From Obrimoposthia wandeli (lineage: Eukaryota), in NCBI GenBank assembly GCA_977020255.1, contig CDROCS010002676.1, positions 496,001-560,000 on the forward strand: 64,000 bases of DNA, in the 5' to 3' direction. A model generated the notes under the pieces. The model was not told the origin of the DNA and searched no databases. It was given only the letters and a program-made list of their open reading frames with translations. Of the stretch, positions 5,896 through 26,192 are shown piece by piece. Each line of letters begins with the position of its first letter. Position 1 is the first letter of the stretch. A program made the position numbers and the translations under genes.

Positions 5896-5959
5896 TCGTT
5901 TCGTCTCACCTATTTAATCCGATTTTCCAATTCCTGGGACGACGTGTAAGCTTGCCGAT

Positions 5960-6157: not shown

Positions 6158-7233
6158 GTCTGTCGCTCCGCCGCCGTGAAATGAATTCGATATTGGCTGA
6201 TCTGCAATTCCAGCAATTAATATAGGCTCAAAATTAGGAGCGCTCACCAGAGTTTTTTCCGCTGACTCAGTCCTTCGTCTCGGCTAAAATTGCTCTTTTC
6301 TGTGTGTGTCCCCTGGCACGACAATGACTGATAGTTACTGGAGAGGATTTCTGGTAGTTGATTTTTCTTCCAATTCACTGAGTTTGTTTCTCCTTCTATT
6401 ACAATTCACTGAGTCGACTTATATAGTCGATCGTCGATTGGAGGCAATTTCCACCTGGCTCTTGAAAGTCAGTGAAAATAAAATTGGCTAAAATAATATG
6501 CCTACTGTCAATCTTCTTTTCTGCTGACGTGGTTTTTCTTTTAATTAATTTTCTTTTTTGCTTTGCTTATTATTTTCTTTTGCACTTTTGTTTCCTTTAA
6601 AATTAACTTATATACACAACACATCATACACGACCTTCGTGGTCTTCTAACATTTATTCTTATTTTAATTTTAATAATTTTAATTTTGATTTTAAAATTT
6701 ATTAAATTCTAACCTTGCTTTCAAGGATTTTCATTTTACTATAAAATCAATTTATTATTTTAATTTTTTAATTCCTAAACCTAACATATCTCGGGGGTTC
6801 CAAAAAAGTTACGTCCCCGGAACGTATCGATTTTACTCTTACAAGCCTCTGGCTGTTGATTTTAGGTTCATCCCTACAAAATCAGTCATTCAACTCATCA
6901 AACATGCCCAAAAAAAAAATTCCAAAACCCGGTTTTTAGAGGAAATTATAGTGAATAATTTGGACAAGTCTCAATTTATACACTATTACTACGTAAAACT
7001 AAAAATTACACAAGGGAAAGGATCAAGGGGGTGATTGTCAAGGAAGATGACGGTTCAATTAATGTTAATTGTCAGTTGTTCCTGTCATTTAGGAACAGCG
7101 TGACCTGCTCCAGTGGCAGGTCTGGATACGATGGGGTCTGGCCTTCGAACAGGGCCATCTGCTGGTTGAGGTTGAGGTGCGGGTTGGGATGGAAAAGGGT
7201 TGTGTACCGCCCGTGGACCCCGCGATTCTGGAT

Positions 7234-7569
7234 TCATATTTGGCGACCGCGTTGCCATGAGCGGCAGTCACGGCTTGATCGCCATTTCTCTCGGAGGGAG
7301 AGTTTCGCGTCGCGACGGCGCGCAATGCAACCGGGACATTGGCAATGTTCGCCACCAATACAGCTGGTGAGCGAACGAGTGCCCTTGTGGCGACCGCGAC
7401 ATTGGAGTGTCCATTCCGCGAAGGGAGCACGGCACAACGGACATGTGACGTGGCCTTCGGGTCGAGTTCGGGCCCATGTATAGAGACACGCCTCGTGGAA
7501 CTTGTGACGGCAGCCGACAGGGGATGCCGATGCCGTCCAAATTTTCTCCAGGCAGACTGAACACTTCAT
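7234..7569 (-). CDS. RING-H2 finger protein 1 (LTR-element cargo), with C-terminal C-x5-C-x-C-x2-C motif
   Basis: CSVC...CRHKFHEAC...W...CPLCR is a C3H2C3 RING. ATG at 7569; the ORF track starts at an upstream GTG. Confidence 0.85.
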   Translation of the reverse strand: MKCSVCLEKIWTASASPVGCRHKFHEACLYTWARTRPEGHVTCPLCRAPFAEWTLQCRGRHKGTRSLTSCIGGEHCQCPGCIARRRDAKLSLREKWRSSRDCRSWQRGRQI

Positions 7570-7919
7570 CTGCACAAGATAATGATTTTTTTCAACTTGG
7601 GGTTCGACTGTTTTCGTCGTTAGTTTATGAAGTTAAAATTTTAGTTTCAAAACGAAACCTTAGTTTTTAATCCTACCGAGTTTTGTTCCGATTTTAGGCA
7701 TGTTTACACATTCATACTAGGCATAAAAAATTGTCTTTTAGAATTTCAGTATAATAATTACAATTTCAATTAAACAACATACATAAAAATGGTAATGGTC
7801 ATTTTACAGTTTCACAAGATTATACAATTATGATTACAATTATGGTAGTTAATTTATCGCGGTATGCGATACACAGGGTAGTTCATGATGTCACGTTCAA
7901 GTCAGAAAGTTACCTTCGA

Positions 7920-8225
7920 TTATTGCTGGGAGTTGGGCTGGCCTGTGCGTCGCTCCTCCACGCAGAACGAGCACCAGCAATCGCAGATAGTTTTCCAGCA
8001 GTGTACTATGGGTACCACTGCTTGGAGGCTGTCCTGGATGTACAAGTAGTGCACTGAGAAGGTCGCTCTGCACATCGGGCAGGTTGGGTAGTCGAGGGGA
8101 TTGTTGCTGTTGGCGATGGGAATCCACGTCTCGAGGCATTCGATGTGGAATAGGTGGTCGCAGTTGTTGGGCTTGGTGTAGAGGTCCACGATGCTCTCGT
8201 AGCAGATGGAACATTCTCCAGACAT
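7920..8225 (-). CDS. RING-H2 finger protein 2 (cargo), with C-terminal C-x6-C-x-C-x2-C motif
   Basis: CSIC...CDHLFHIEC...W...CPMCR, then CWKTICDCWCSFC. Confidence 0.88.
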   Translation of the reverse strand: MSGECSICYESIVDLYTKPNNCDHLFHIECLETWIPIANSNNPLDYPTCPMCRATFSVHYLYIQDSLQAVVPIVHCWKTICDCWCSFCVEERRTGQPNSQQ

Positions 8226-8285
8226 TACTGTGAGAGGGTTGATGTTGAATTTGGGCTCGATTGAGGACTGGTGATTGTGTGATGT

Positions 8286-8585
8286 TTACACAAAAGAGGT
8301 CGGATTTTGTCGTTCTGACAAACAGTAGTAACACCAACACTCTCCGAAATTCTTCCAACAGAATACCACCTGTACATATACATCCTCTTGGTTGGGTTCT
8401 ATCATGATGAACCTTGCGAATTGTCTTCTGCATACAGGGCAACAAGGGTATGTTGGATGTCCGAACTGTCCATAAGTTCTGATCCATGTTGATAAACATT
8501 CCTCGTGGTGTAAATGGTTGCAGGTTTCGGGTCTTGTTCTTCGTTCGGTTAGATCTTCCAAACATATTGGGCATTCTTCGGACAT
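8286..8585 (-). CDS. RING-H2 finger protein 3 (cargo), with C-terminal C-x6-C-x-C-x2-C motif
   Basis: CPIC...CNHLHHEEC...W...CPVCR, then CWKNFGECWCYYC. Confidence 0.88.
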   Translation of the reverse strand: MSEECPICLEDLTERRTRPETCNHLHHEECLSTWIRTYGQFGHPTYPCCPVCRRQFARFIMIEPNQEDVYVQVVFCWKNFGECWCYYCLSERQNPTSFV

Positions 8586-8708
8586 TCTAAATACATGATG
8601 ATGATTAATTTCTACATGAGTTTTATATATTTCTACTATTTGTACAATCGCTTCTAGGTATTTCTACATATTTCACACACTAATTTATCTACAACCTCCT
8701 CTGACTTA

Positions 8709-9707
8709 TCATATCTTGATGGGAGGCGGAGGTAAGGGTCGCAATTCCACTTCCTCCATGGTGGGTGTGTTACAGCATCGCAGTCCTTCGCATTTTCGTC
8801 GTATTTTTGGGCATATTTGACTGCCTTTCACGCACACGACTGTCAATAGGACCACTGCTGTTGACACTACGGCCATTCCAATTAGAGCGTTGACCGCTGT
8901 TACTCTGCTATCAGATGATTGATAATCATACTTCATTTTGTTGTTTGTCGGTTCGAATGACATTTCCATTGGTCTTGATCGGTTTCCATGTATTAGGTCC
9001 GATTTTCTAAAAATTCGCGGATTTGGATATTTTGTTTCTGGTGGAACAGGTATTATTATTTTAGATTGGAAATTATGTTTGGGATCTAGTGGGATCGTTC
9101 CCCTCACTCTTGTCCTCTTAATAATTGTACTTTGGTTTCTGGAATTGAGCTCTTTTTCTTTCGCTTCTGTCTTTGTTCTGATCACTTTTGGCTTTTTGGA
9201 ATGGCGTTTACTTTCGTTTACCTTTGCCTTCTTTTTGACTAGGATTGGTTTTTTGGGAATGATTTTCCTGGGTTTGATACTTATACCGGATCTACGAAAT
9301 CGACGGTTCTGGTATCTTAGAGTTATGTAGAATATTTCACCTGTTATTACCATGATTATGGTCGAGGTCTCTGTAGCATTGCTGGGAATTCGGTTACATA
9401 GACATTCTGTATCAAAATGTGGTACTAACATTTGGTTTTGGATTTCGAATCTGATTCCGCCATCTGGATTGGGACACAACACTGTTACTCTGTCGGTTTC
9501 TAGCAATCTGAAAAATATTCTAACATAATTCCATACGGTTTTACGTCGTCTACCTGTGATCATAATCCTGTCGACAATTTTCCAGATGCGCTCATCTCTA
9601 GGCAATATTAATGACTTTGTTCGGATACTTTGGATAATCCGCTTCCTCTTTGATATCGTTATCCGTAGGTATAACACTCTTTCATGTGGATTTCTTTGAA
9701 CCAGGAA
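8709..9707 (-). CDS. Putative type-I membrane protein at the end of the Pol frame (joined to 9659-10408 by a 1-nt shift)
   Basis: Preceded by signal-peptide-like LLAIGLLSCLMPITGA at the end of ORF 9659-10408. Contains RRFRR (furin-like), hydrophobic VNALIGMAVVSTAVVLLTVVCV, and a short Cys-rich tail ending RPLPPPP. Confidence 0.6.
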   Translation of the reverse strand, partial: FLVQRNPHERVLYLRITISKRKRIIQSIRTKSLILPRDERIWKIVDRIMITGRRRKTVWNYVRIFFRLLETDRVTVLCPNPDGGIRFEIQNQMLVPHFDTECLCNRIPSNATETSTIIMVITGEIFYITLRYQNRRFRRSGISIKPRKIIPKKPILVKKKAKVNESKRHSKKPKVIRTKTEAKEKELNSRNQSTIIKRTRVRGTIPLDPKHNFQSKIIIPVPPETKYPNPRIFRKSDLIHGNRSRPMEMSFEPTNNKMKYDYQSSDSRVTAVNALIGMAVVSTAVVLLTVVCVKGSQICPKIRRKCEGLRCCNTPTMEEVELRPLPPPPIKI

Positions 9708-10408
9708 CTATTTCCGTGGTTAGAGCCTATCTCTTGTGCTCCCGTTATCGGCATTAGACAACTTAACAAGCCTATCGCTAGCAATCTTTGGTATTGAAAG
9801 CTGGGCACTGTTGTTGTAGCTTCATTTGTTTCTCGTTGTTGCTTCCTCTTTTCGGTGTACTTCTCTATTTCTCGAACGAGTAACGGTTTGAATTCCGTAT
9901 CTGGTCTATTCTGTTTGATGTAGACCATCGCTTCTTCTGGTGTATGACCATGGTACTCTACCAACAAGGATACACCTATGGTAGGCGCTAACATCGTACC
10001 TTTTTTCTGATATATCAGAACGCCGTTTCCTTCTGTGACTTCGGCTTGGATGGTTTGAGTCAATTTCATCAGATGTTGTTGTGAATCATTTATTTCTCGA
10101 TTGGAAGCATGTATGTATCGAGTGGTGTCGTCTTCAGTATTTTGACACAGACTGATTATCTCGTTTCCGACTTCAACAATATTAATTACTCGGTTGATAC
10201 TGTGGAACTTTAATCCAGCAGCATCTATATCTCCTGGATAACATAAAAATACTTTTGGCATTATCTGAGTAATTTTGTCGACTCCGGCTAAGAATAAACC
10301 GGTCAACGATAATGCTTGGAGGAAATTCTTTTCCTTTGGATCCTCAGGAATGTCGTCCATCCGTCTTTGTTCTTGCAACATAAGTTGGTAATTTGACAAC
10401 TGTCCCAA
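9659..10408 (-). CDS. End of DSP domain 1, plus a catalytically dead dual-specificity-phosphatase-like domain 2, plus a signal-like segment
   Basis: Starts GQLSNY, completing PNLNF(L)GQL. Then QIMPKVFLC...INRVINI...GVLIYQKKGTMLAPTIGVSLLVEYHGHTPEEAMVYIKQNRP follows the DSP fold, but HCxxGxxR is replaced by YQKKGTML. Confidence 0.75.
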   Translation of the reverse strand: MGQLSNYQLMLQEQRRMDDIPEDPKEKNFLQALSLTGLFLAGVDKITQIMPKVFLCYPGDIDAAGLKFHSINRVINIVEVGNEIISLCQNTEDDTTRYIHASNREINDSQQHLMKLTQTIQAEVTEGNGVLIYQKKGTMLAPTIGVSLLVEYHGHTPEEAMVYIKQNRPDTEFKPLLVREIEKYTEKRKQQRETNEATTTVPSFQYQRLLAIGLLSCLMPITGAQEIGSNHGNSSWFKEIHMKECYTYG

Positions 10409-13400
10409 AAATTAAGATTTGGGTTTGCAATACTTCTTCTCTCCTGTAGGTATTTCAGTGCTTCTAGTACCTGCATTCGTATAGTCTTTATTAGATACGC
10501 TAATACTAGGGTTGCTGATCGAGAAATTCCTTTCTGACAATGTACCAACACTTTTCCTTGGTTTCGGAGTTCTCTGTGAAGTATTTCGTTTGTTTCTACG
10601 AACCATTCGAGAAGATTAGCGTCCATTGAGTCTTTTACTCTTAATGTCATGGCTCTGATTGTCTGGTATTGTGATTTGTGATTCATTGTAACATTGATCA
10701 CGTATGTTATCCCTTGTTCCAACAGTTTCTTTTCATCTGTTGCATCTTTCACATTTCCGAGGTATAACTTATCTGGAATGATCTCACTCATTGGTGGCAA
10801 TAATTCTGACTCTTCAAGTTTTAGTCTTTCTAATCTCTTCTCTATCTGTTCGTCGATGTTGGATAGTTTCGCCAATTTCTTTCCTCTCAGCATTCGTATT
10901 GCTGGAGAGATATTCATCTTTGTCTCTGATGTCTGTTTCTTTGTTGAGTCTTCTTCCGACTCGGTCTCTTCTGCAGATTTAATTCGTCTTTCTTGTATAT
11001 TCTGTTTCACGAATTCTATGTTTTGTCTTTTTCTGCTCTCTTTAGCGAATTCAACCTCCATGGTTTTTTCGAATCGCTCTATCATGTTATCTTCAGATTC
11101 TGTTGATTCTGTATCGTTACTTTCCGGTTCGCTGTCTTGACCAGACTCGCTCGAAGGGTATTCTGGTATGTCTGTCTGAACTGAAATTAATGAAGGGGTT
11201 AGAATAATTGGATTGACTGGTCCTGCGTATTTGTGAATCGGATACGGTATTACGCTATCTTTAAGTATCTCAACTTGGAACTGTGCTCCATAGCACATGA
11301 CAATTGTTTCCAATTTACCCATGATGGATAATCCATCGAAATAGGTAACATTCAGCTTAGATATCGGTGTTTTCGCATAATTAATTAAATTGACTCGTAT
11401 CTCGGTTGATGACGGCCATCGATTTTTTAGTAAAATTATAATTTCGTCGTTTATCGATGTAATTACACTTGGCGCGGATGATACTATTTCAGCATGATAT
11501 TTTGGCTGGATTGAGTTTGTCACTTGTTCTCGGATAATATTGATTCGTTGTGGTTTATTTTTAGCTTCCCACTTCCGGTATCCGCTGTCAATGCGTAACT
11601 CTGCCGTTGCTTTGATGATTTTATTGTTGGTCACTTCCGGTTGGGTTGGCGAATGAAATCCTTCTATTACGCTCAACCTTACAGATACTTCCGTTTGATC
11701 TGTGTCTAACCGGTGAGATTCTGGTATACAACATACAATTGTCTTTCCGTCAAAGTATTTGGTGTCCATCTGACAAATTATCTTTTCGGTGTCTGCGTCG
11801 ATTAAATGAACTCTCATAATATCTCTTTTCCCATGTGAATTACGTAATACCATTATTACATCATGGTATTCTTGTTTGAGTCTTTTTGGTGTACCATGAA
11901 GAATGTGACCACCGGCCGGTTCCTTTTCTTCCTGACTGGCTAGACCTGTTTCAGTACTGTCATAATTCTGCCATGCAACTATGTTTGGTGTCAATGTGAT
12001 TTCGATTAACACTTTCTTAGTCGTAAACACATTGGAGTTTTGATATAGTGCTGCGACTAATGTATTTCCGTCGTAGTATGACACTCTAAGTTCGCATAGA
12101 AATTCGTTTGTCAGTGCATCTTTCACAATGACTTCTTTCGCCACATCTGTTGGTTGTGTTTTTTCGAAAACAACTATTATCTCTTCGTCTTCTTCTAATA
12201 TCTCTTGTGGTGCGATGTGTCGAATTACTTCTTTTTCCTCTTGGTGCTTCATTCTGAGCATACCAATTCTCGCTGGTTTTTTCTCGCTACCACTCGTCAT
12301 CATGTTTATGTAGTTCCGATCACTTACCATTCGTGTAAGCTTAATGGTATTGGTATTCGGCTTCGATTTCTGTGATCTTAACTCATATCGTGACGCGTTA
12401 TCTTTATTTGGTACTAATTTGCATCGATTTGCATGTACAATCATCGGTTCCTTGTTCCGATTTTCCTCGTTGATTACTTTCAAGTTCGTTGAGGTTGTCT
12501 GTATCACCTTGTATGGTCCTTTGTATGGTCTATGAAGTTTAAACGATAGACCTGGTTCGATGACTGGATAAAATATCATCACTTGATCTCCGACTCTAAA
12601 TTCATGTGGTTTTGCTTTTTTGTCGTATTGTTCCTTGTAACCTTCTTGATTGAATTTCAACTTCAATCCGGCTTTGGTCCAAGCATCCTGCAATCTTTCC
12701 TTCATGACGACAATGTATTGTTCAGTTTCTAGATACTGAGATGTTGGCTCGGTCCACTCCAGATCCATCGGCATATTGTTCTGTCTGAGATACATCAGAT
12801 AGAATGGTGTGTGACCCGTCGCCTCTCGAACTGAATTCCTGTAAGCATATAAACATGAAGGTAAATATTTATCCCAATCCTCTTGCTTGTCTGAGCAATA
12901 GGATTGTACCATCATACATAAAGTTTTATTAAACCTTTCTACTAGACCATCTGTTTGTGGGTGATATGGTGAAGTTTGTAACTTCATGATTCCGAATATC
13001 TTCGATACTGCTTTTATTACTTCTCCAGTGAAGTTCTTACCTTGATCCGTTAACAACTTTCTAGGCACTCCGTATCGAAATATTATCTCTTCCACTAAGA
13101 TTTGCGCTATTGTTTCAGCTTTCTGGTTCTGCATGGGATATGCTTCTACCCATCTCGTCATGTAGTCCGTAAATACTATGACGTACTTGTTTCCTTTACT
13201 TGATTCTCTCAATGGTCCCAATATATCCATTGCTGTGAATTCCATTGGTGCCAAAGGAACTGGCATTGGTTTCAGTGGAACTTTAGTACGGGTTCCAGTA
13301 TCTTTTCTGGTTAAACATACTTTACATTGTTTACACCATTGTTTTATGTCGTCTTCCATGCCATCCCAATGGTACTTCTCTTTGATTCTGGCTATTGTCT

Positions 13401-13515
13401 TTCGCCCTGACAGATGTCCTCCTAGTGTTCCATCGTGATACTGGATCATCACTGCTGTTTTCAATGACTTTGGAATTACTACTATTATCTTTCCGACATT
13501 ATTGACAATATACAA
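10303..13515 (-). CDS. Pol part: integrase (HHCC, DDE, GPY/F), three IPT/TIG-like repeats, acidic linker, active dual-specificity phosphatase
   Basis: H-x5-GH...CKQC, MDILGPL, TDQGKNF, GLVERFN, YKGPYKV. DSP: EIIPDKLYLGN...VHCQKGISRSAT. In frame with 13537-16539 across a single TAA. Confidence 0.93.
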   Translation of the reverse strand: MYIVNNVGKIIVVIPKSLKTAVMIQYHDGTLGGHLSGRKTIARIKEKYHWDGMEDDIKQWCKQCKVCLTRKDTGTRTKVPLKPMPVPLAPMEFTAMDILGPLRESSKGNKYVIVFTDYMTRWVEAYPMQNQKAETIAQILVEEIIFRYGVPRKLLTDQGKNFTGEVIKAVSKIFGIMKLQTSPYHPQTDGLVERFNKTLCMMVQSYCSDKQEDWDKYLPSCLYAYRNSVREATGHTPFYLMYLRQNNMPMDLEWTEPTSQYLETEQYIVVMKERLQDAWTKAGLKLKFNQEGYKEQYDKKAKPHEFRVGDQVMIFYPVIEPGLSFKLHRPYKGPYKVIQTTSTNLKVINEENRNKEPMIVHANRCKLVPNKDNASRYELRSQKSKPNTNTIKLTRMVSDRNYINMMTSGSEKKPARIGMLRMKHQEEKEVIRHIAPQEILEEDEEIIVVFEKTQPTDVAKEVIVKDALTNEFLCELRVSYYDGNTLVAALYQNSNVFTTKKVLIEITLTPNIVAWQNYDSTETGLASQEEKEPAGGHILHGTPKRLKQEYHDVIMVLRNSHGKRDIMRVHLIDADTEKIICQMDTKYFDGKTIVCCIPESHRLDTDQTEVSVRLSVIEGFHSPTQPEVTNNKIIKATAELRIDSGYRKWEAKNKPQRINIIREQVTNSIQPKYHAEIVSSAPSVITSINDEIIILLKNRWPSSTEIRVNLINYAKTPISKLNVTYFDGLSIMGKLETIVMCYGAQFQVEILKDSVIPYPIHKYAGPVNPIILTPSLISVQTDIPEYPSSESGQDSEPESNDTESTESEDNMIERFEKTMEVEFAKESRKRQNIEFVKQNIQERRIKSAEETESEEDSTKKQTSETKMNISPAIRMLRGKKLAKLSNIDEQIEKRLERLKLEESELLPPMSEIIPDKLYLGNVKDATDEKKLLEQGITYVINVTMNHKSQYQTIRAMTLRVKDSMDANLLEWFVETNEILHRELRNQGKVLVHCQKGISRSATLVLAYLIKTIRMQVLEALKYLQERRSIANPNLNFWDSCQITNLCCKNKDGWTTFLRIQRKRISSKHYR

Positions 13516-13536
13516 GATTCCTTCTTTTATCGAGTA

Positions 13537-16500
13537 TTATTTCGTCATTTCATCGTTTAGATCTCCTTTCACCAACAATTCTTTGATTAGACTCAATTCT
13601 TCATCTTCTTTCTGTTCTTTGATGATCTCTTTGTCTATTTTACCCGTCTTCAGCAAAATCGTCAGTAGATTTGCTTCTCCTTTTTGGTCATTGGTTTCAT
13701 CTTCTTCTGGAATTATGTTTCCTTTCTCGTCTACATTTGTCAATCTCGACAAACAATCTGCGTTGCCGTTCGACTTTCCGGTTCTATAACGGATTTCTAG
13801 ATCGAATTCGGCCAATTTTAGAAACCATCTGTTTAATCTACTCATATCATCTCTATGTTTATATAAGAACTGTAGTGGTTTGGGATCTGTATATAGGAAT
13901 ACTTTTTGTCCTAGCAAGTAGTGTCTGTACTGTCTACATGAATACACTATGGCTAGACATTCCTTTTCGATAACAGAGTATCCTCTTTCAGCTCTGTTTA
14001 ATCCTCTACTCGCATACGCGATGACGTGTTCTCTTCCTTCGTCATCCTCTTGTCCCAATACTGCTCCTACAGCATAGTTACTTGCATCTGTCATGAGTAT
14101 GAATTGTCGGTTTATATCTGGAAACGCTAATATTGGTGCGTTTATCAGCCTTTCTTTTAAATGCTCGAAAGCTTGTTGTGCTTCTTCTCCCCATATGAAC
14201 TTCTCATCTTTCCTCGTCAACTTTCTCAATGGTGTTGCTATATCTGAAAAATGTTCAACGAATCGTCTATAATAATTCGCAAGACCTAAAAAACTCTGTA
14301 TTTCCTTAACAGTCTTTGGCGCTAAATGCGCTTTTACTTTCTCGATCTTCGCTGGATCAGGTCGAATGCCTTCTTTCGATACTATATGTCCTAAAAATGT
14401 TACTCGCTCTTTAGCCCATTCACATTTTGTAGGTTTAACTTTTAATTTAGCGTTTTCCAGTCTTTTAAATACAACTTCAAGATTTTTTAAATGTTCTTCG
14501 AACGTTTTCGAAAATATTATTATGTCATCGATATAAACCATCGTGTTTGCACACGATGCGAGCACAAAATTCATGCAACGCTGAAATGTTGCTGGAGCTT
14601 CTGTCAGTCCGAATGGCATCTTTTCGCATTCGTATAGGCCATCTCCGCAGGAAAAGGTTGTTTTGTGTTTATCCTCTTCCTCTATCTCGATTTGCCAGTA
14701 TCCACTCTGCAAATCCAATGTCGTAAAATAATCTGAATTACCCAATTTATCGAGCATCTCTTCGATTCTAGGTAATGGATACACATCTTTTCTTGTGATC
14801 TTGTTCAGTTCTCTGAAATCTATACAGAATCTCATTTTCCCATCCTTCTTTTTTACCAACACCACAGGTGCTGAGAATGGCGAAAAACTCGGTCTAATTA
14901 CTCCTGTTTTAGACATATCTTCGATCTGACTTTTTACTTCATCTTGTAACTGTAATGGTACTCGATATGGTCTTCTTCTGACTACTTTGTCTTCTGTCAG
15001 TGGTATTGTATGTTTTATGACAGGTGTTTCTCCTATGTCATATGGATTTTTTGCAATTACTTTCGGAAATTTATGTATTAGATCAAGTAATTGTTTCTTT
15101 TCTCTAGTTGTCAGTCTTTCTGATTGGATTACTATTTCTTCGTAATCATTCGTATCTTTATCGAGTTTCATAGCGCATACAGTGGAATTCTCCATCTGTG
15201 CTATCTTTCCCAACCTCATTCCTCTGTATAATAGAATGTCATTGTTGGTTGTATTCATCAGTCTAACTGGTATTTTGTGGTTTTCGATCAGGCATACTGT
15301 ACTCACAACTGGTAATTCGTATTTCTCTATGAAATCTCGTGATGGTTCGAACACAACTGGTCCTTTATCTTCTGTTAATGTGTGACCTTGAATGAGAAAT
15401 TGTGATCTTTTACCGATTTTTATAGGATTCTCTATAATTACATCAATTTGGTTTATTTGTCTGTTTGATGTACTATCCTTTAATCTTGGATCTTGTAAAT
15501 CAATACTTATCCCTTTAAGTTGTGATAGTACATCCATTCCTAAAATTGTAGGTTCAGGACATTCTTTCATGATTCTAACTGGTATAGTGATCGTATTACG
15601 TCCAATTATAAATGTACATGGTAATATTCCCGTCACTTTTACAGGGTCTCCATTGACCGATACCAAGAATTCATCTGGTTCTGCCATTGTTCGTTTCTGT
15701 TCCTCTGTCAAACAGTCTTCACTTACTATCGAAGCTACAGCACCTGTATCAATTAAGGCTTTTACTCTTAAATTATTTACTCTAATGATAGCTGCTGGTC
15801 GCTGTGCTCCATTTATGTTTCCCATATGGTATATTGTATTTATCGAATTATTACACTCTGTCAGTCCACTTCCTTTGTTTGGATAGTGAAATCTAATGTT
15901 TCTCACTTGTCGATCTATTATTCTTCGACAAATTGGACATGATACTATTTCATTCGCACATCTCCGACATGTTCTTACATGTCCGCATGGTAGAAAGGCA
16001 ACTTCTATTTTGTTGACCATGCAAACTGCGCATTCCGGATCTTCTAGTACGTATTCTAGTTCATTTATGTACTCTTTCTCTTTTGTTTCAATTGTACTGT
16101 CATCTTTATCTCGCAGTAATTCAAAAATCGATCCGTATCCGTTTCGCGTAGTTTTTATTTTTAATTCTACCAATTCTCTGATTCTTTCTGCTTCTTTTGG
16201 ATATAACCTTCTCACGAATGACACTACCGGTGTGTCTTGTTGAGCCAAAATCTCTTTCCGTGTGATTTGGTATTCGATTATACATTCGGTTTTCTGTTCT
16301 TTTTGCTTTATTTTATTTTTAAAAATACAAAATTCGCAAAATTCATGATGTAAAATTTTCTTAGGTAGCTCAAGAGTATATCTGTCGATAATTCGTTCTT
16401 TTTTACACTTGTGGCATTTAATTACGTCTTTACCATCCTTTTTTATAGCAAAAAGTCCCTTTTTTGCCAATTTTTTAAGTCTTGGATCTTCGAAAGTTAC

Positions 16501-16539
16501 TTCTCGATATTGTTCGTCACATTCGTTCACTTCTCGCAT
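13537..16539 (-). CDS. Pol part: degenerate BIR2, IAP-type RING, aspartic protease 2, reverse transcriptase, RNase H
   Basis: LAKKGLF...CHKC-x18-H-x6-C; CAVC...FLPCGH...CRRC...CPICR; LIDTGA; FCIDFRELN, LPRIEE, MPFGL, YIDD; TDASNYAVGAVL, EKECLAI, DCLSR. Confidence 0.95.
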   Translation of the reverse strand: MREVNECDEQYREVTFEDPRLKKLAKKGLFAIKKDGKDVIKCHKCKKERIIDRYTLELPKKILHHEFCEFCIFKNKIKQKEQKTECIIEYQITRKEILAQQDTPVVSFVRRLYPKEAERIRELVELKIKTTRNGYGSIFELLRDKDDSTIETKEKEYINELEYVLEDPECAVCMVNKIEVAFLPCGHVRTCRRCANEIVSCPICRRIIDRQVRNIRFHYPNKGSGLTECNNSINTIYHMGNINGAQRPAAIIRVNNLRVKALIDTGAVASIVSEDCLTEEQKRTMAEPDEFLVSVNGDPVKVTGILPCTFIIGRNTITIPVRIMKECPEPTILGMDVLSQLKGISIDLQDPRLKDSTSNRQINQIDVIIENPIKIGKRSQFLIQGHTLTEDKGPVVFEPSRDFIEKYELPVVSTVCLIENHKIPVRLMNTTNNDILLYRGMRLGKIAQMENSTVCAMKLDKDTNDYEEIVIQSERLTTREKKQLLDLIHKFPKVIAKNPYDIGETPVIKHTIPLTEDKVVRRRPYRVPLQLQDEVKSQIEDMSKTGVIRPSFSPFSAPVVLVKKKDGKMRFCIDFRELNKITRKDVYPLPRIEEMLDKLGNSDYFTTLDLQSGYWQIEIEEEDKHKTTFSCGDGLYECEKMPFGLTEAPATFQRCMNFVLASCANTMVYIDDIIIFSKTFEEHLKNLEVVFKRLENAKLKVKPTKCEWAKERVTFLGHIVSKEGIRPDPAKIEKVKAHLAPKTVKEIQSFLGLANYYRRFVEHFSDIATPLRKLTRKDEKFIWGEEAQQAFEHLKERLINAPILAFPDINRQFILMTDASNYAVGAVLGQEDDEGREHVIAYASRGLNRAERGYSVIEKECLAIVYSCRQYRHYLLGQKVFLYTDPKPLQFLYKHRDDMSRLNRWFLKLAEFDLEIRYRTGKSNGNADCLSRLTNVDEKGNIIPEEDETNDQKGEANLLTILLKTGKIDKEIIKEQKEDEELSLIKELLVKGDLNDEMTK

Positions 16540-16686: not shown

Positions 16687-16880
16687 AAGAAATGGGCAAT
16701 TTGGTGCATCTCTTTTATGACGTCTCATTGGGTTTTCATTCTTTTCCCACTCTCTAAACTTTACTCTACATCATACGCATCGTACGACTTCCTCATGACC
16801 ATAACTACTTGTCGCGTTTAACATTTCTAAACCTGATCTTGCCATTTTACGTGCCATTTCTTTTGAATAGTACTGTTCTA
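16687..16880 (-). pseudogene. BIR domain 1, interrupted by an in-frame TGA (16771-16773) and missed by the ORF track
   Basis: Reading through the stop gives MARSGL...EVVRCV*CRVKFREWEKNENPMRRHKRDAPNCPFL, an exact C-x2-C-x16-H-x6-C BIR signature. Confidence 0.9.
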
Positions 16881-17610
16881 ATATATTTCGTCTCTTTTTC
16901 TCGAATCTCATGGGATCCTTTTCTGACAGATTAACATATGTTATTTTCCTCCTCGTCATCTCTTGTGGTCCGAGGTTTACGTTTTTGTAGTGAAGTATCG
17001 ACTTTACTAGCGCTTCCTGTTTTTTGTCTTGGTACGAATTTCCCAAACGGAACGTAGTGTATTTTTCTTTTTCGACTACAGGTCCTCTCAACATTTTTAT
17101 CTCTCTCACTGAACTGTCATTCTTATAACTCTTGTTGTTTGGTAGTATAATTATTCCTTCAAACATTCTTATTACGTCCATCCCAATCATGACTGGACTT
17201 CCGCAATCTGTGAATATTCTAGCATTTAACTGCAATGCTCTTCCATCGATATTCAATGAACATTTCAGTGTTCCTTCTGACACTACATCTGTACCATTTA
17301 CGTTAACAAATGTCTGTTTTCTAGGACATACTTCTCTTAATTCTTTTGATGACAAGATTTCTTTACTCAGTACTGATACTGCAGATCCAGTATCAACTTC
17401 GGCAAGATATTCTCTTCCGTTCAATGTTACTGCTACTTGTGGTGGAGCATTTGGATTCTCATTTGATATCCTAGACTTCAGAATTCTTCTGGAATTATCT
17501 TTTTTGTCTTTTTCCTCTGCTTGTGGAATCTCACTGTAGCTCACTTTAGGCCATCTTATCATTAAGATGCCTCTCTTGAACTTTTCCTTCTCTTCCTTTA
17601 GTTCCTTCAT
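16771..17610 (-). CDS. Aspartic protease 1 (additional retropepsin), linker, and N-half of BIR1
   Basis: VAVTLNGREYLAEVDTGSAVSVLS...VNG...G.L.C...IGMDV, colinear with protease 2. Confidence 0.88.
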   Translation of the reverse strand: MKELKEEKEKFKRGILMIRWPKVSYSEIPQAEEKDKKDNSRRILKSRISNENPNAPPQVAVTLNGREYLAEVDTGSAVSVLSKEILSSKELREVCPRKQTFVNVNGTDVVSEGTLKCSLNIDGRALQLNARIFTDCGSPVMIGMDVIRMFEGIIILPNNKSYKNDSSVREIKMLRGPVVEKEKYTTFRLGNSYQDKKQEALVKSILHYKNVNLGPQEMTRRKITYVNLSEKDPMRFEKKRRNILEQYYSKEMARKMARSGLEMLNATSSYGHEEVVRCV

Positions 17611-17628
17611 TTTTTTTTTTCATTTTTT

Positions 17629-19211
17629 TTATTTTTTTACAACATGTTTGTAATTCTTGTATATTTCTATTGTTCCTGTACGAAATGCGTCTTCGCAATC
17701 TCTCGGAAAAACCTTATGTGCTTTGTACGGTGTGGTAGGTGTGATTTCTGACATAAAACTTCTATGACCACAATAGAATTCGTGATAACTTGAATGGATT
17801 GAACATTCTTTCACTTCTACTTGTGCTTTATCAACATCCTGATACACAAAGTAGTTTTCAACACCTTGAACTTCTAGTTTTGACGGTTGTGACTCTGGAC
17901 AGTCTTCGCTGTCAAGCAGTGAATACTTTTGTCCCATCTTTGGTATGCTACAGTCGTATGCTATCAATCCTGATGCCTGTTGCATTCCCATGAACATTAC
18001 TAACATCATCATCATCATTGTTGTGGACATATTTGGTTGATTGTTTCTTTCTTTCGGACGGTATTGTTTATTTTCTCTTTGACGATTCTCATGACATTGT
18101 TCGTCATCGTCTTCGTTCATTTCCACAATGGTTTTAGCGTAGTCACTTAATTTTGCCCAACCTCCGTTTTCGTCGATTCGTCTCTGTAACACATTCTCGA
18201 TCAAATACATCGCTTCATTTATTCCTTGTTTGACTTCGTGAGGTTGGCTCGTTCGTTCCGTCAATTGGAAACATAGATATGTGATTGCTGTAATTAACTT
18301 TTTATTTGTAGTCTGGTTTCCACATAATCTCGCTAAAACTTCACCGTCGTAAAATCTATCTATTGATGCATGGTATACATGATTCGCAGTCATTCTCTTT
18401 ACTGCAGACATTTGTGATCTAACTGCTTTAGTCAAATTGTCTGTTATATCGGTTGTTTCATCTCTGTACATTTTGAACAACTTTGGCTTCACTTGCCTGA
18501 GAATTCCCGTAAGTATATCTTTACTACTTGGAGTTTCCGAATTCATATCACCTCTGATATCTTCATTCCGCTCCGTACTATACTGCTCTAATGACGCTGC
18601 TAACTGTCCAATGCTTAGATGTCTCTCTTTATCAGTTTGTGGTGCAGTTAGAACATTTCGTAATATACTTCCGTCTTTTCTAGGTCTTCCAGGTCCTCTT
18701 CGAAAATACTGATACTCAGTTTGATTCTCTCCTGGATCATACGGTTCACCATTATACTGTATCTCTTGACTTGGTCCCTCTTCATGGCCAATCTCTTCAC
18801 TTTGTCGCATCATCTGCTCTGCTTGTCTGTCTTTGTATGCAGCATGCCAAATTGGTGAATCTAAATCTACAATTTCGGAGATTTCATCTTCTCCTACTAG
18901 TTGGGTTACGTTTTCGTTTTGTCTCGCTTGGTTAGCTGTATCCATGACTTCATCTTGTCTGATTTGAATTATATCTGGTTCTGGTGGTACTTCGACCACT
19001 GGAGTTGTCAACTCATTTTCTAAATTCATGTCTTGTAATTCAGCTACGTACGGTTCTGGTGTGGATGTCTTGTTCCAAGCTTCAGCTACATCATTATCTC
19101 CGCTTTCGCTTGAACTGTCTAAAATTTCTATAGGCGTTTTTATCATTTCTAACGCAGAGTTTAATATCTCCGTTAATCCTTCATTATCTACTAACTCTTG
19201 ACGTCCTACAG
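17629..19211 (-). CDS. Gag-frame extension: acidic region, AT-hook, Bcl-2-like domain, hydrophobic signal, truncated chuvirus-type glycoprotein N-terminus
   Basis: RRGPGRPRK (AT-hook); LRQ..YR..TDITDNL and IDENGGW (Bcl-2 helices, BH2); MMMMMLVMFMGM..ASG-LIAYDC...SLLD...C...KEC...CG...C...TG. The ORF track's first residues (19212-19287) come from the hAT insertion. Confidence 0.7.
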
Positions 19212-20657
19212 CAGGGTTTCTCAACGGGGGCCCTGGGGCCCCCTGGGGGGCCACACAATTTGCCAGGGGGCCACACGAGCCAAACAAAAATAAAAAATTA
19301 ACACCCCTGTTTTCACTGGGTTAAACACTTCGATGGCTGCACACGTGTGCCATAAATAAATGTTTGACATGGAATAAAAACAGAGTATAGACTTCTAGAT
19401 ACATATGGACGCGACGCGTCAACTTATTTCGTGGGCGTACCAGCCCAATGAGGGCCGACGGTAAAACATCATAATATGCCTTTGCAAAAATATCATCGCG
19501 CTACAAAAGTTTGTGTGGCGGATGTGGCATATGCATAATCATCATTCTGAGTAATCTATGGACTAAAATCAGTAATCGTGTTGTGTCTCAGCGTGTGAAG
19601 AGAAGAGTGTCACACTTCATGTGTACATGCCCAAAATACGCTGCCATTGAAAAATGCTACCTACCTAACTCACAAACGTGCACTTGTGTTTGTTTTGAAT
19701 GAGTCAGTAGTTGATTTCTTTCTTCTTGTTTGTCATTCACCATATCTGAATGTACACACATAGGACCTTGTTTTTCTAATTGTCTTTTTGCTCACGTTAC
19801 CCTTGTAAACAATTTTCATTTCTGATTTTTAGTTGACAATGAGCAGCAAGAAAAAGTGCAGACAGTATAATTGTGATTATTTACGTTTCGGATTCATTGC
19901 AAGCCAAAGTAATTCTCAACTTCCTGAGTGTATTGTCTGTAACACTGTGCTCTCCAATGACTCAATGCGACCATCAAAACTTGAGGCTCATCTCCAAAAG
20001 AAGCATCCTGACATTGCAACAAAACCGCGCACATATTTTACTCAGCTTCGTGATCAGAGGACAACAGCCTCAACCCAATTGCGAAAATTTGTGGTTCCTC
20101 AGAACTTTACTTCTGGCTTAACAGCATCATATAAAATTGCATATTTAATGGCGAAACAGGGTAGAGCGCATACACTGGCAGAGCAGTTGATTAAACCTGC
20201 TATCTTGGAAGCATTTAATGTTGCCATGTATCAAATCCACAGTCAGTGCTCGCATCGATTCCTCTCTCAAATGAAATTTTCAAGAAGGTTTATCCCTTTA
20301 TTGTTAATCTACCGACGTCGGTGTTAGCTGAGAAGGGGTTCTCAGTTGTCCTTCATTCGTTCGCAAAACAGCGGATGAATCTCAAGTTGTGTGACAATGC
20401 AGAAATCCGTTTACGACTTTCTGAAAATGCTCCAGATTTCACTACACTTGTTGGCAAACGCCAAGCGCAAGGGTCACACTAACATTTTTTAAATATAGTT
20501 TTCTCATTGATTATCTTTTTGAATGTTTCCATGACAGAATAGTATAATTGAAAACAATACGTATACGATGTAATCTTTTTGTTCATAGTAGAGGGGGGCC
20601 ACAGCAATTTGCTGCAAACTAAAGGGGGCCGTGGTGAGAAAAGGTTGAGAAACCCTG
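19212..20657 (+). mobile_element. Non-autonomous hAT (Buster/Charlie-type) DNA transposon, internally deleted, 1446 bp
   Basis: TIRs CAGGGTTTCTCAAC / GTTGAGAAACCCTG and 8-bp TSD TCCTACAG (nnnTAnnn) at 19204-19211 and 20658-20665. Contains a BED-finger N-terminus (KKKCRQY..YL.FGF...PECIVC...LSNDSM.PSKL..HL..KH) joined to a Buster-type C-terminus (PTS.L.E.GFS...QAQGSH). Confidence 0.95.
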
Positions 20658-21011
20658 TCCTACAGTGATGACATCAATTTTTTCCTCTAATTCATTTCCT
20701 ATCGGATATCCACACTCGACTGGTACGTCCTCATCATCTAGTGATCTCCCTTTATAATGGAACAACATATTCATTCCATCAATTTCAAGTTTCTCGGCCA
20801 ACTTTTTTCGAATAGTTTTCATTGTCTGATACACGTTAAGTTTTTCATGTATAATCTGTCCGGAAATTAATCGAAGTGAAATATTCATCGTTCCTTCCTG
20901 GTTTGATCTCTGTACGTAGCGACCATAACCTTTCAATAATCCTCGTGGTACTTCTTTGTAACCCAAGTTATCATGACTATGTTTAACCAATTCTGCTCGC
21001 ACTTCTTCCAA
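20658..21011 (-). CDS. Ubiquitin-like domain following Gag; continues in frame into 19211 once the hAT is removed
   Basis: MNISLRLISGQIIHEKLNVYQTMKTIRKKLAEKLEIDGMNMLFHYKGRSLDDE follows the ubiquitin pattern (MQIFVKTLTGK...TI..VK.KI...L.F.GK.L.D). No C-terminal GG. The junction reads KIDVITVG|RQELV. Confidence 0.7.
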
Positions 21012-23086
21012 TCTGTGTGCACTTTAATTGTTTGCAATTTGGCCAAAACTTCTGGAGCTTCACTCGTTTCATCTAACGGTTGATTCAACGTCTCCTTAGC
21101 TTCACTAATTATCTTTTTTACATTTTCCATACTCGTAGCATTTCTTGATGCTTCTACATGATCAGTCATAGGTTGTGCGTTACACGTTTTCTCTATTGGT
21201 GTCTCATATGCTTCTAGTATTTGGTTCATTAAATCATTCATCTCTTCTCTCGAGTGTAGACTTTTTTCTTGTTTCGACAACGTAGATGAATTCGCCATCT
21301 TTGTATGTGGTGAATCTTTAATTATTCCCAACATTCGTTCAAATTTACTATCACTATCTTCAAAATCTATTTCGCGTCGAAGTTCGGTCTCGCGATTCCT
21401 ATCGCTGTCATCGTTTACATAACTAAAATTTCCTTTCGGTTTCGGCGAACTCTCGCGACTATTTGTCTTGTCAACATTATTATTATTATATCTACCGGAA
21501 TTATTATATCTCTCAGCTCCTTGCTGTCCTACGTAATTATTGTATCTCTCAGCTCCTTGCTGTCTGTCTGCATAGTTATTGTATCTACCTGGTGACTGTT
21601 GTCTATCTGTATACTGATTATTCGGTCTCCATGGCTGTGGAGTATATCCACCACCTCTATTCCATGGCGGGGGTGAATTATATCCTCTATAATTATTTCC
21701 AAAATTATTATTACCGAAATTATTATTTCCGAATCTGTTAGTTCCGAACTCTTTACTTCTCGTACAATCTCTCGAATAGTGAGCCATTTGTTTACACGTG
21801 TAACACATTATTCTCCCTCGAATATCTATCTTATTTTGTTCATCTTCGAACTGTACTCGACGACTATTCTGTCTATTATCATATCGTCCTCTAAAATCAT
21901 TTCTTCGGAAATTCGATTCAAAACCGCTTCCTCGATTATTGAATCTTCCGTCACTACTTCCTGTATTATTTCCAAATCGAGAGTCACTTCGCTCTTCTCT
22001 GTTTGCGTTGTAATTCCTATCGTCTCCTCTCCAAGGTTGGCGATTTCCTGAATTTTCTATGTTAAATCTATTCCTGGAATCATCTCTATTTCTATTCCAC
22101 GAATCATTACTATTTCTACCTCTTGAATCATCTCGATTCCTGTTCCAAGACTCACTATTATTTCTACCTCTGGAATCATCTCGATTCCTACTTCGGAAAT
22201 TATCTCTGTTTCCGTTACTGGATTCATCTACTTTTTCAAACTTATTTTGTCCATAATTTCGATTCTGAAAATTACTCGGTTCTGTTTTATTCACGAAGAC
22301 CTTTGTCTTATCGTCGTCACCTGCAGTCATTGCGTAAATTGCCAATGCTGCGTTATTTTTTATATTTTTCTCAATCTCTCTCGCCTTTCGCACGGCGTTA
22401 TCAAAATCATTTGTATCCGATACTGCCAATAATACTTTAATATCTTTTTTCAGTCCTCCTCTAAATATATCCAACAAAACCTCTGCCATTTCATTTTGGT
22501 TCCGGTCATTTTCCGCTACTTGTGCTTCTTGAGCTACAGGAATACCGTCCTGATTTCTCATTATTCTTCTTGGGTACGCTCTTGCAGCCAAGGTTCTCAA
22601 AACATACGCGTATTCATTCACGCCTTCATCATGTTTCTGCTTCCGTTCTCTCATGAGTCGCTTATTTACTTTGGCTAAGTCTCCTAATACCAATTTTCCA
22701 ATAAAAGCATTTTCCAACGTTGGCCAGTCTAAACGTTCTGCTTCTGTCAAATGTTTATACACTTCAAGTGCTAATCCGGTTAAGTGTGCCTGTACTCGGA
22801 CACATTTTTCTTTATCGTTCCATCCTTGAACATCTGCACAACTCGAATATTCTGCGAGGAAGTCACAAATACTTTCCTCATCTCCTTTAAACTTTGTGAT
22901 CTGCAATGATCCTGAAAAGTTGGGTCTCAACGTCGCATTTAGGGCTTGTGCCAACTGTTCGGCATTCATGTCACCTACATTATTTCCTGCATTATTATCT
23001 GCTTGAGCTCCTGGGTGAGCCATATTTTCAACTATATCTTCTTCAACTATTTCTTCAATATTATTCGCTTGAACTTCTTCAATCAC
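20933..23086 (-). CDS. Gag (capsid, N/R/G/Y-rich low-complexity region, CCHC knuckle)
   Basis: KFKGDEES..FL..Y...GW...LTGLA..Y...W..L...F, and CYTCKQMAHYSRDC. First in-frame ATG at 23023; the frame is open without an ATG up to ~23410. Confidence 0.9.
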   Translation of the reverse strand: MIEEVQANNIEEIVEEDIVENMAHPGAQADNNAGNNVGDMNAEQLAQALNATLRPNFSGSLQITKFKGDEESICDFLAEYSSCADVQGWNDKEKCVRVQAHLTGLALEVYKHLTEAERLDWPTLENAFIGKLVLGDLAKVNKRLMRERKQKHDEGVNEYAYVLRTLAARAYPRRIMRNQDGIPVAQEAQVAENDRNQNEMAEVLLDIFRGGLKKDIKVLLAVSDTNDFDNAVRKAREIEKNIKNNAALAIYAMTAGDDDKTKVFVNKTEPSNFQNRNYGQNKFEKVDESSNGNRDNFRSRNRDDSRGRNNSESWNRNRDDSRGRNSNDSWNRNRDDSRNRFNIENSGNRQPWRGDDRNYNANREERSDSRFGNNTGSSDGRFNNRGSGFESNFRRNDFRGRYDNRQNSRRVQFEDEQNKIDIRGRIMCYTCKQMAHYSRDCTRSKEFGTNRFGNNNFGNNNFGNNYRGYNSPPPWNRGGGYTPQPWRPNNQYTDRQQSPGRYNNYADRQQGAERYNNYVGQQGAERYNNSGRYNNNNVDKTNSRESSPKPKGNFSYVNDDSDRNRETELRREIDFEDSDSKFERMLGIIKDSPHTKMANSSTLSKQEKSLHSREEMNDLMNQILEAYETPIEKTCNAQPMTDHVEASRNATSMENVKKIISEAKETLNQPLDETSEAPEVLAKLQTIKVHTDWKKCEQNWLNIVMITWVTKKYHEDY

Positions 23087-23519
23087 TACTTGATTGGCAA
23101 TTTCAAATTCTTCTGGGTTTTGAACTTCAATATTATCAATTTCTTCTGGGTTTATTTCACCAATTACTTCAGTCAGATCAAAACTGTCGGTTGAAACTGC
23201 TGATTGATTTACGTCTCTGTCTGATACGTTTTCTTCGACTCTAGTCTGTTCTATTACTTTGTTATCTGTTTGGGGAATCTGTTCAATTCGGTTAACTTTA
23301 TTATTATTTATCTCTTCCTGGGGAATCTGACTTTGTCTTCTAGTATTATACGCGGGTCCTTTTCTATTATCCGTTGTCTTATCAATTATGTATTCGTTTA
23401 CGATATCAATTTACTTATTATTTTATCTTATTTCACAATTCTTATTTTACGATTTTTTATCTCTTTAATTAGTTCGAGGACACGTCTCCCGACTTAACCT
23501 ATTCAATTAATTACTTCGA

Positions 23520-24097: not shown

Positions 24098-26192
24098 TGT
24101 TGGGGTTTCTATATGAAACTTATATAGATCCTCTTGTGTGCGGAGGGCCCCAACGTGAGTTCGAATAGAAGCAGGTCTTAAAGTTGGTCGTGGCCTACTT
24201 AGTGCTATGGTCTCCTGTCTCAACTACTTATCTGAAGGTGTTTGTTTTGACGTCTCTTAATCTGAAGGTTTTAAAACAACGTTTTCTAATGTAGGAAATC
24301 GTTTATTGTTAACACACTAGACTAATACAACAATATGTTTACGTACGTATTTTCTAAAAAGTTATAGTAAAAATTCATTAGACTTCTGTAAGTCTCTACA
24401 CCAGTGGGGATGAACCACGTATCGATTTTACGTTAAGGTTGGTTAATATCTTAGAGTCTTTTCCTTAAATCGCGAATAAGCTCAAGTTATAGATTTTATG
24501 GAGCTGGTTGCTCTACTTCAAATGGTGAATTTATAGGCAAACAATTGTTAATTAAATTTATAGGCAAAACAATTATTACTTCAATGGTAATTTTATAGGT
24601 AAACAAATATTTCTTCAATGATAATTTTATAGGCAAATAAATATTTCTTCAACGATAATTTTATAGGTAAACAAATATTTCTTCAATGATAATTTTATAG
24701 GCAAACAATATTTCTTCAATGATAATTTTATAGGCAAACAATATTTCTTCAATGATAATTTTATAGGCAAATAAATATTTCTTCAGTGATAATTTTATAG
24801 GTAAACAAATATTTCTTCAATGATAATTTTATATGCAAAACAAATAGTATGTCAATGATAATTTATATGCAAAACAAATATTATGTCAATGATAATTTTA
24901 TAGCAAAACAAATATTATGTCAATGAAAATTTTACAGGCAAACAATATTTCTTCAATGATAATTTTATAGGTAAACAAATATTATGTCAATGATAATTTT
25001 ATAGGCAAACAATATTTCTTCAATGATAATTTTATAGGCAAACAATATTTCTTCAATGATAATTTTATAGGCAAACAATATTTCTTCAATGATAATTTTA
25101 TAGGCAAATAAATATTTCTTCAGTGATAATTTTATAGGTAAACAAATATTTCTTCAATGATAATTTTATATGCAAAACAAATATTATGTCAATGATAATT
25201 TATATGCAAAACAAATATTATGTCAATGATAATTTTATAGCAAAACAAATATTATGTCAATGACAATTTTACAGGCAAACAATATTTCTTCAATGATAAT
25301 TTTATAGGTAAACAAATATTATGTCAATGATAATTTTATATGCAAAACAAATATTATGTCAATGATAATTTTATAGTCGTTTCGTCTCACCTATTTAATC
25401 CGATTTTCCAATTCCTGGGACGACGTGTAAGCTTGCCGATCCGCAACTGTAAGATGAATCCCGATTCGCAACTGTAAGATGAATCCCGATTCGCAACTGT
25501 AAGATGAATCCCGATTCGCAACTGTAAGATGAATTCGATTTGCAACTGTAAGATGAATTCGATTGTCTGTCGCTCCGCCGCCGTGAAATGAATTCGATAT
25601 TGGCTGATCTGCAATTCCAGCAATTAATATAGGCTCAAAATTAGGAGCGCTCACCAGAGTTTTTTCCGCTGACTCAGTCCTTCGTCTCGGCTAAAATTGC
25701 TCTTTTCTGTGTGTGTCCCCTGGCACGACAATGACTGCTAGTTACTGGAGAGGATTTCTGGTAGTTGATTTTTCTTCCAATTCACTGAGTTTGTTTCTCC
25801 TTCTATTACAATTCACTGAGTCGACTTATATAGTCGATCGTCGATTGGAGGCAATTTCCACCTGGCTCTTGAAAGTCAGTGAAAATAAAATTGGCTAAAA
25901 TAATATGCCTACTGTCAATCTTCTTTTCTGCTGACGTGGTTTTTCTTTTAATTAATTTTCTTTTTTGCTTTGCTTATTATTTTCTTTTGCACTTTTTTTC
26001 CTTTAAAATTAACTTATATACACAACACATCATACACGACCTTCGTGGTTTTCTAACATTTATTCTTATTTTAATTTTAATAATTTTAATTTTGATTTTA
26101 AAATTTATTAAATTCTAACCTTGCTTTCAAGGATTTTCATTTTACTATAAAATCAATTTATTATTTTAATTTTTTAATTCCTAAACCTAACA
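24098..26192 (-). repeat. 5' LTR (2095 bp)
   Basis: Direct repeat of 4582-6786, adjacent to the PBS and followed by the CATC TSD. Confidence 0.97.

Follow-up and report, generated by a model that had tools for sequence, protein, structure and literature searches.

The locus described here raises two questions, namely whether a giant LTR retrotransposon carries a Bcl-2-type domain within its polyprotein, and what such a domain would do. The window, that is, the whole stretch of 64,000 nucleotides of Obrimoposthia wandeli DNA that was analysed, had previously been read from its letters only, and this sequence-only reading proposed a Bcl-2-fold domain embedded in a Gag-frame protein. The stretch concerned (18112..18531, minus strand) encodes about 140 amino acids, is predicted to be all-helical and forms a conserved block common to an older family of the element (family B, see below). 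The motif strings that had been quoted do lie in a single minus-strand frame, the ORF at 17629-19320, which holds the domain of the window copy.

The stretch is part of a Gypsy LTR element with a Burro-type domain order (4582-26192, minus strand), whose 21.6 kb were followed end to end in the window copy only. The 5' LTR (24098..26192) and the 3' LTR (4582..6786), both on the minus strand, measure 2.1-2.2 kb each and are 99% identical outside tandem repeats, and a 4-bp target duplication flanks the element. Pfam matches gave the module order as Gag, ubiquitin-like, Bcl-2-like, Env, protease, BIR/RING, second protease, reverse transcriptase, RNase H, integrase, two phosphatase domains and three RING ORFs, all of them on the minus strand. 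The upstream modules are Gag, with one CCHC knuckle near 21805 (20933..23410; Retrotrans_gag E 0.0037, below the cut-off; zf-CCHC E 3e-4), and the ubiquitin-like domain (20658..21023, in the ORF 20619-21023; PF00240 E 0.0028, below the cut-off), while an acidic linker (18532..19203, minus strand) lies immediately before the Bcl-2-like domain. Downstream of the domain are the N-terminal part of a Monjiviricetes-type fusion glycoprotein, or Env (17632..17967; PF24664 E 9e-15), a first aspartic protease domain (16774..17619; PF13975 E 1e-6) and a degenerate BIR with an IAP-type RING (15910..16530; RING E 9e-12), in which the BIR match is weak (E 0.0096, below the cut-off) with its Cys/His pattern CxxC..H..C at 16327-16416. 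The second aspartic protease (15511-15804) is followed by the reverse transcriptase and RNase H (13540..15804 for the three together, by Pfam), so that the two proteases stand on either side of the BIR-RING module. The remaining part consists of the integrase, an unassigned region and a dual-specificity phosphatase (10306..13536; rve E 2e-12; DSPc E 4e-31), a second, degenerate phosphatase domain (9662..10411; DSPc E 1e-5, below the cut-off) and three small RING-finger ORFs (7237..8663; zf-RING_2 E 5e-9 to 1e-8). Between 11140 and 12240 (minus strand), after the integrase, there are three look-alike segments, each with a Y-[YF]-D-G motif (12078, 11757 and 11343), which matched no Pfam family and gave no BLAST self-match. 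Tandem arrays of 49-, 34- and 25-bp units are found at 23514-23983 and inside both LTRs.

Comparison with other copies revealed that the window copy is defective, since about 1.6 kb of env is absent near 17620, several frames are broken and a Buster-type hAT remnant of 1,446 bp has been inserted secondarily at 19212..20657. The remnant has zf-C2H2_12/zf-BED matches, 14-bp terminal inverted repeats and an 8-bp target duplication at 19204-19211 and 20658-20665; it is itself a young repeat, with 1,052 candidates in the genome and 97-100% identity at the best 40 places listed. The proposal that the domain lies in the Gag frame thus does not hold for the window copy, where Gag, the ubiquitin-like part and the domain occupy three ORFs with the remnant between them, but it does hold elsewhere: of 18 other copies, 10 have Gag, CCHC, the ubiquitin-like part and the Bcl-2-like domain in a single open frame. 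These 18 were the first 21 listed, minus the window copy and two near contig starts, and they are not a random sample, as all of them are 100% identical in the domain. A single giant ORF, in which Env is in frame and lies between gag and pol, was also seen in other copies, though not in the window copy. Among the 30 loci that bear env, the Bcl-2-like domain lies immediately upstream of the Env signal stretch in every one, the frame is open from the domain to Env in 20, and it is open from the domain to the protease in eight.

A genome search returned 11,486 candidates, a figure that is not a copy number; the 150 that were scored are all 99-100% identical, with open frames of up to 5,478 codons. 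The family of the window copy (family A) is clearly large and young. Searching the genome with a Bcl-2 profile uncovered a second element family, B, which is older and decayed and whose domain is about 38% identical to that of the window. A search for the BH2 pattern (38 matches, of which 30 were translated), together with an Env profile, revealed no third element family, every match belonging to family A or B or to a host gene, or being due to chance.

The best Pfam match of the window domain is Bcl-2 (E 0.048-0.064). The scores remain under the PF00452 cut-off of 31.4 bits, at 14.2-14.7 bits for the window domain and 16.8-20.6 bits for the element copies found in the genome search. Bcl-2 was also the commonest Pfam family among the copies (13 of 25), with the best E value, 7e-4, in the older family. 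The alignment of these 25 rows, eight from family A and 17 from family B, was assembled from long matches without frameshift. Its profile was compared by hhalign with eight host fragments of the Bcl-2 family, the best host gene being a clear Bcl-xL relative (E 2e-18), and the comparison gave a probability of 81.5% and an E value of 1.1e-5 over 66 columns. The hhalign score of 38.0 was reached by none of the controls: the reversed profile scored 16.7, 150 column shuffles gave at most 19.9 and 150 block shuffles at most 36.7 (0/150 in each set). When the BH2 octamer was taken out, the score fell from 38.0 to 16.0. Taken together, the controls and the removal of BH2 indicate a genuine sequence signal that depends on BH2.

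This dependence on one motif would fit an unrelated helical domain with a GGW arising by chance. The BH2-like motif RIDENGGW (18157..18180, minus strand) corresponds to W-I-x-x-N-G-G-W in family B, and its GGW is the only one among the 10,445 ORF residues of the window. The BH2 motif typical of the Bcl-2 family (W-x4-GGW) was found in the domain, as the sequence-only reading had stated. Conservation of GGW across copies and relatives had been set beforehand as a check on that reading. Of 64 family-A copies, 63 retain GGW and one is not covered, and 60 have Arg in place of the first BH2 Trp; in family B a Trp stands at the start of BH2 in 22 of 30 loci, the full W-I..GGW being retained in 9/30 of these decayed copies. 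The presence of the BH2 Trp in the older family argues against a chance motif, as do 41 control windows taken from the other proteins of the element, which score at most 17.1 compared with 23.3 for the Bcl-2-like domain.

Structural predictions bear on the same alternative. The AlphaFold models are all-helical and poor (pLDDT 43 and pTM 0.29 from the single sequence; pLDDT 46 and pTM 0.37 with the alignment), and the alignment-based model was used for the fold searches. In the PDB, Foldseek placed Bcl-2 folds in the top 16 rows and in 37 of the 46 shown, with a best E value of 0.08. A VIA-align comparison with 48,161 chains had Bcl-2 folds at 14 of the top 19 positions (Z 4.0-4.8, rmsd 4.3-5.5, 106-121 residues aligned), and in a viral structure library KSHV ORF16 ranked first (E 0.13). 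The best matches were BHP2, KsBcl-2, CNP058, Mcl-1 and A179L, all BH3-binding proteins, and identity to viral and metazoan Bcl-2 proteins in the fold alignments ranged from 4 to 19%. None of these matches is significant alone, since the Foldseek E values all stay above 0.001 and Z does not exceed 4.8; moreover, the GGW motif may have steered the predictor, and the evidence consists in the consistent ranking across libraries. In the Foldseek and AlphaFold check suggested by the sequence-only reading, the ranking favours the helical bundle around a central hydrophobic helix that is typical of the Bcl-2 family, but does not prove it. Low-confidence models, and the fact that apart from the Pfam E value of 7e-4 in the older family no fold or sequence match is significant alone, speak for an unrelated helical domain, but in each of three fold libraries the leading matches are Bcl-2 folds, aligned along almost the entire domain (106-121 residues), and independent authors annotated BCL2 at the same position of a related architecture (PMC6431247). 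We consider a chance GGW the least probable of the explanations weighed here.

Other searches contributed no relatives. A search of the PDB by sequence matched no Bcl-2 protein, a BH4 scan of seven N-terminal pieces gave no match, and nothing usable was found among homologues outside the own genome, where the lone match, a triple-repeat protein over 21 residues, was judged to be due to chance. The ESM Atlas returned DUF6532 (0.95, with 151 shared features) and clusters of bacterial hypothetical proteins, unrelated families that no other test backs. The host genome contains its own Bcl-2-family genes (L031-L045), with 10 matches above the Pfam cut-off and a BH3-like exon of the Bax/Bak type in L038. 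No donor stands out among these paralogues, the best being L036 (45%) and L032 (44%), and the sequences are too divergent for a tree.

The balance of silent and replacement changes showed strong purifying selection on the domain. Compared with seven older family-A copies, dN/dS of the window domain was 0.07-0.17 (7/7), against 0.24-0.34 in the faster-evolving upstream linker. Changes common to at least three of 64 copies gave a ratio of 0.06 in the domain (54 silent, 13 replacement), 0.20 in the linker and 0.11 in Env, while private changes among the same copies gave a ratio of about 0.5 everywhere. Common variants from two sequencing runs of one sample (contigs of unrecorded kind, with no bearing on expression) numbered seven silent and no replacement in the domain, and seven of each in the linker. 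As judged from this pattern of substitution, the domain is functional for the element. With Pfam, hhalign and the fold rankings, selection supports the original call, and we conclude that the stretch is a real domain and very probably a divergent Bcl-2 fold, a confidence that was raised in part by the independent annotation published for Burro in PMC6431247.

The anatomy of the motifs, on the other hand, differs from what had been proposed and from the pro-survival members of the family. The register of hhalign sets TNKK (18298..18309, minus strand) on NWGR, so that both the Gly and the Arg of BH1 are Lys; the sequence-only reading had NKK at this position with a degenerate core, which stands, in a register that is one residue off. 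Family A retains NKK in 61 of 64 copies and family B in 22 of 30, and the domain lacks the Gly-Arg of BH1. The spacing from the BH1 Asn to the BH2 Trp is 49 steps, compared with 52 in the host Bcl-2 gene, which confirms the proposed 50 versus 53 residues when counted inclusively. The assignment of BH3 to the ILRQ...DNL stretch (18433..18504, minus strand) was not supported, because its Leu lies 64-65 residues before BH1, whereas the distance is 46 in Bcl-xL and 47 in the host gene. In the structural alignments the model starts at residues 2-6, which fall on the first helix of the target proteins. The ILRQ helix is therefore more likely to be helix 1 (the BH4 position), the rest of the stretch opening the helices that follow, and the proposed BH3 was probably placed one helix away. 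No BH3 Gly-Asp (L-x3-G-D, about 46 residues before BH1) was found inside 18112-18531.

According to PMC9609553, the BH1 Arg forms a salt bridge with the BH3 Asp and the GR pair is strongly conserved, although a poxviral F1L has no such salt bridge and departs from NWGR; PMC2836074 describes that mutation of the BH1 Gly abolishes pro-survival activity and that vaccinia F1L still binds Bak. The conserved Lys-Lys in place of Gly-Arg thus makes classical BH3 binding doubtful. A complex prediction of the domain with the host BH3-like peptide of L038 scored 0.01, which speaks neither for nor against binding.

Poxviral Bcl-2-fold signalling inhibitors such as A46, A52, B14 and K7 have lost the signature residues of BH1 and BH3 and block signalling. 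The domain resembles them in this loss, and it could be a Bcl-2 fold whose groove is closed and which uses a different surface to block innate or stress signalling, working with the RING, ubiquitin-like and phosphatase modules of the element. Two families with just 38% identity both keep Lys at the two GR positions, as if selection had favoured an altered site. This retention, the lack of a BH3 Gly-Asp, and the two phosphatase domains, four RINGs and ubiquitin-like domain encoded alongside are consistent with such a role. Nevertheless, the domain differs from the poxviral inhibitors in that BH2 is kept and the fold searches favour BH3-binding members, an A52-like protein appearing only at rank 19 of the viral list, and the F1L proteins mentioned above show that departure from NWGR and binding of Bak are both on record (PMC9609553, PMC2836074). 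We regard a signalling blocker of this kind as possible, though on the unlikely side; the remark of the sequence-only reading that such folds may act without binding BH3 peptides is a reasonable one.

The hydrophobic Met-rich stretch downstream (17968..18030, minus strand) had been taken for a tail anchor. It begins 43 residues past the BH2 Trp, is short (Kyte-Doolittle 2.15 over 11 amino acids and 1.45 over 19) and is preceded by five basic residues in the last 20. The stretch is internal, the frame continues into Env in 20/30 loci and the PF24664 match starts on it, so it is not a terminal tail anchor, and a mitochondrial anchor is rejected. It is better read, from its position and composition, as probably the signal peptide of Env, which would direct it to the ER and not to mitochondria. 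An ATG microsatellite within the signal stretch (18004-18018, minus strand) has five repeats in 49 of 64 loci, and 28 and 52 in single loci. Like the pro-survival proteins KsBcl-2, CNP058, A179L, BHP2, Mcl-1 and Bcl-xL, the domain has the BH2 GGW and a similar BH1-BH2 distance, and such proteins are its top fold matches over most of its length. Unlike them, it has no BH1 GR, BH3 Gly-Asp or terminal tail anchor and sits inside a polyprotein. Since it departs from the family at BH1, BH3 and the tail anchor and scores below the Pfam cut-off, we refer to it as Bcl-2-fold or Bcl-2-derived and not as a canonical family member.

The constant position of the domain directly before the Env signal stretch (30/30 env-bearing loci) could also mean that a Bcl-2-derived domain has been turned to the element's own ends, as a cytosolic, folded leader of Env which either fixes the topology or links Gag with Env at the membrane. 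The short spacer between the domain and the signal stretch is constrained as well, with a shared-change ratio of 0.03 based on only 14 changes, as such a leader would suggest. However, the retained BH2 GGW and the anti-apoptotic BIR-RING cargo in the same polyprotein fit a role directed at the host better, and we find the leader function rather improbable.

The explanation that we prefer is a host-derived, divergent Bcl-2 fold that acts within a Burro-type polyprotein as an ER-tethered pro-survival module; taken as a whole mechanism, we judge it to have about an even chance of being correct. In viral polyproteins with internal signal peptides, processing can leave the signal stretch as the anchor of the upstream piece. 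In the same way, the Bcl-2-like domain would remain cytosolic, with the hydrophobic stretch after it serving as the Env signal peptide, and cleavage by signal peptidase would leave this stretch as a C-terminal ER anchor of the domain, where it could persist in the membrane. The protease of the element may release the domain piece from Gag. The ER-anchored domain would then restrain host death of the Bax/Bak type through a remodelled groove, alongside the BIR-RING module, with the outcome that the cells in which the element is expressed stay alive.

The presence of a BCL2-like domain in such elements is not new, as the architecture has already been published for Burro (PMC6431247). In that description, planarian Burro LTR elements encode one polyprotein of 4,873-5,140 amino acids with Gag, BIR and protease and, citing Grohme et al. 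2018, a BCL2-like motif; a ubiquitin/SUMO-like domain precedes this motif, and a mononegavirus-like Env separates it from the protease. The earlier statement that no LTR retrotransposon was known to encode a Bcl-2 domain is thereby superseded. Burro elements are abundant, giant and expressed on PIWI loss (PMC8532177, PMC11410931), and the family is spread in Dugesiidae and Geoplanidae, as PMC13465017 reports citing Lee et al. 2026. The element of the window agrees with the published account of Burro/GYPSM1 in its giant polyprotein, Gag with CCHC, ubiquitin/SUMO-like and BCL2-like domains, in-frame mononegavirus-like Env, protease, RT, RNase H and integrase and in its very high copy number, and its weak BIR match may be a further likeness; the resemblance is one of domain order, and searches outside the own genome brought up no sequence of Burro1-4 or GYPSM1. 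It differs in being 21.6 kb long (window copy) where Burro exceeds 30 kb, in having one CCHC where two or three are described, and in giving no Pfam match to MATH, ankyrin or dUTPase, for part of which annotation PMC6431247 used HHpred. It also has two protease domains, two phosphatase domains and three RING ORFs beyond what section 7 of PMC6431247 lists; the phosphatase domains (9662-10767, minus strand) follow the integrase and the RING ORFs precede the 3' LTR. The Burro1 BIR-RING protein (B-IAP) is reported to protect stem cells from caspase-mediated death (PMC13465017, citing Lee et al. 2026). The present element likewise combines a probable BIR with a RING, and an anti-apoptotic role is proposed here too for its cargo, whereas the Burro1 result concerns the IAP module and the BIR found here is degenerate. 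A literature search found no functional test of the Burro BCL2-like domain, within a coverage that did not extend to Grohme et al. 2018, Lee et al. 2026 and their supplements.

Additionally, our analysis uncovered related sequences elsewhere in the window and in the AT-rich, 1.35-Gb genome. A fragment at 57109-57615 (plus strand) is 39% identical to the BIR-RING region of the element and is probably a relic of a related family, and a strong BIR domain occurs in a highly repeated ORF, often of 341 codons (12,110 candidates, 150 scored), apparently from another IAP-carrying repeat family. An uninterrupted ORF for a ubiquitin-conjugating enzyme at 61500-62219 (minus strand; UQ_con E 5e-27) may be a host gene or mobile cargo. 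At 28229-30269 (minus strand) a BEL/Pao-like gag-protease remnant, recognised by eye and without Pfam support, is preceded by an ORF with a ubiquitin-like RMRGG. The 18S rRNA gene occurs in three full-length copies (L170-L172; 88-96% identity), which resemble the paralogous clusters of Geoplanoidea described in PMC10991399, though they may be pseudogenes or contaminants; along with the AT-rich genome they are consistent with a geoplanoid planarian host but do not prove it.

Because the BCL2-like motif of Burro is already in print, the discovery value of the domain is small. What the copy family adds is strong purifying selection on the domain, a structural ranking that favours the fold, the conserved loss of the BH1 Gly-Arg, and a proposed topology with an anchor taken from the Env signal peptide. 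More speculatively, and less likely than not, the domain may be no plain Bcl-2 mimic: with Lys-Lys for the BH1 Gly-Arg and the Env signal peptide borrowed as an ER anchor, it might be a BH3-independent blocker of death or innate signalling, and part of a counter-defence kit (ubiquitin-like domain, Bcl-2 fold, BIR-RING, two phosphatases and three RINGs) such as large DNA viruses are known to carry. The family in question would be one whose wide spread through the genome is recent. If the domain does protect host cells, the IAP would no longer be the only anti-death module of the retroelement, and this would bear on the transposon-host mutualism reported in planarian stem cells.
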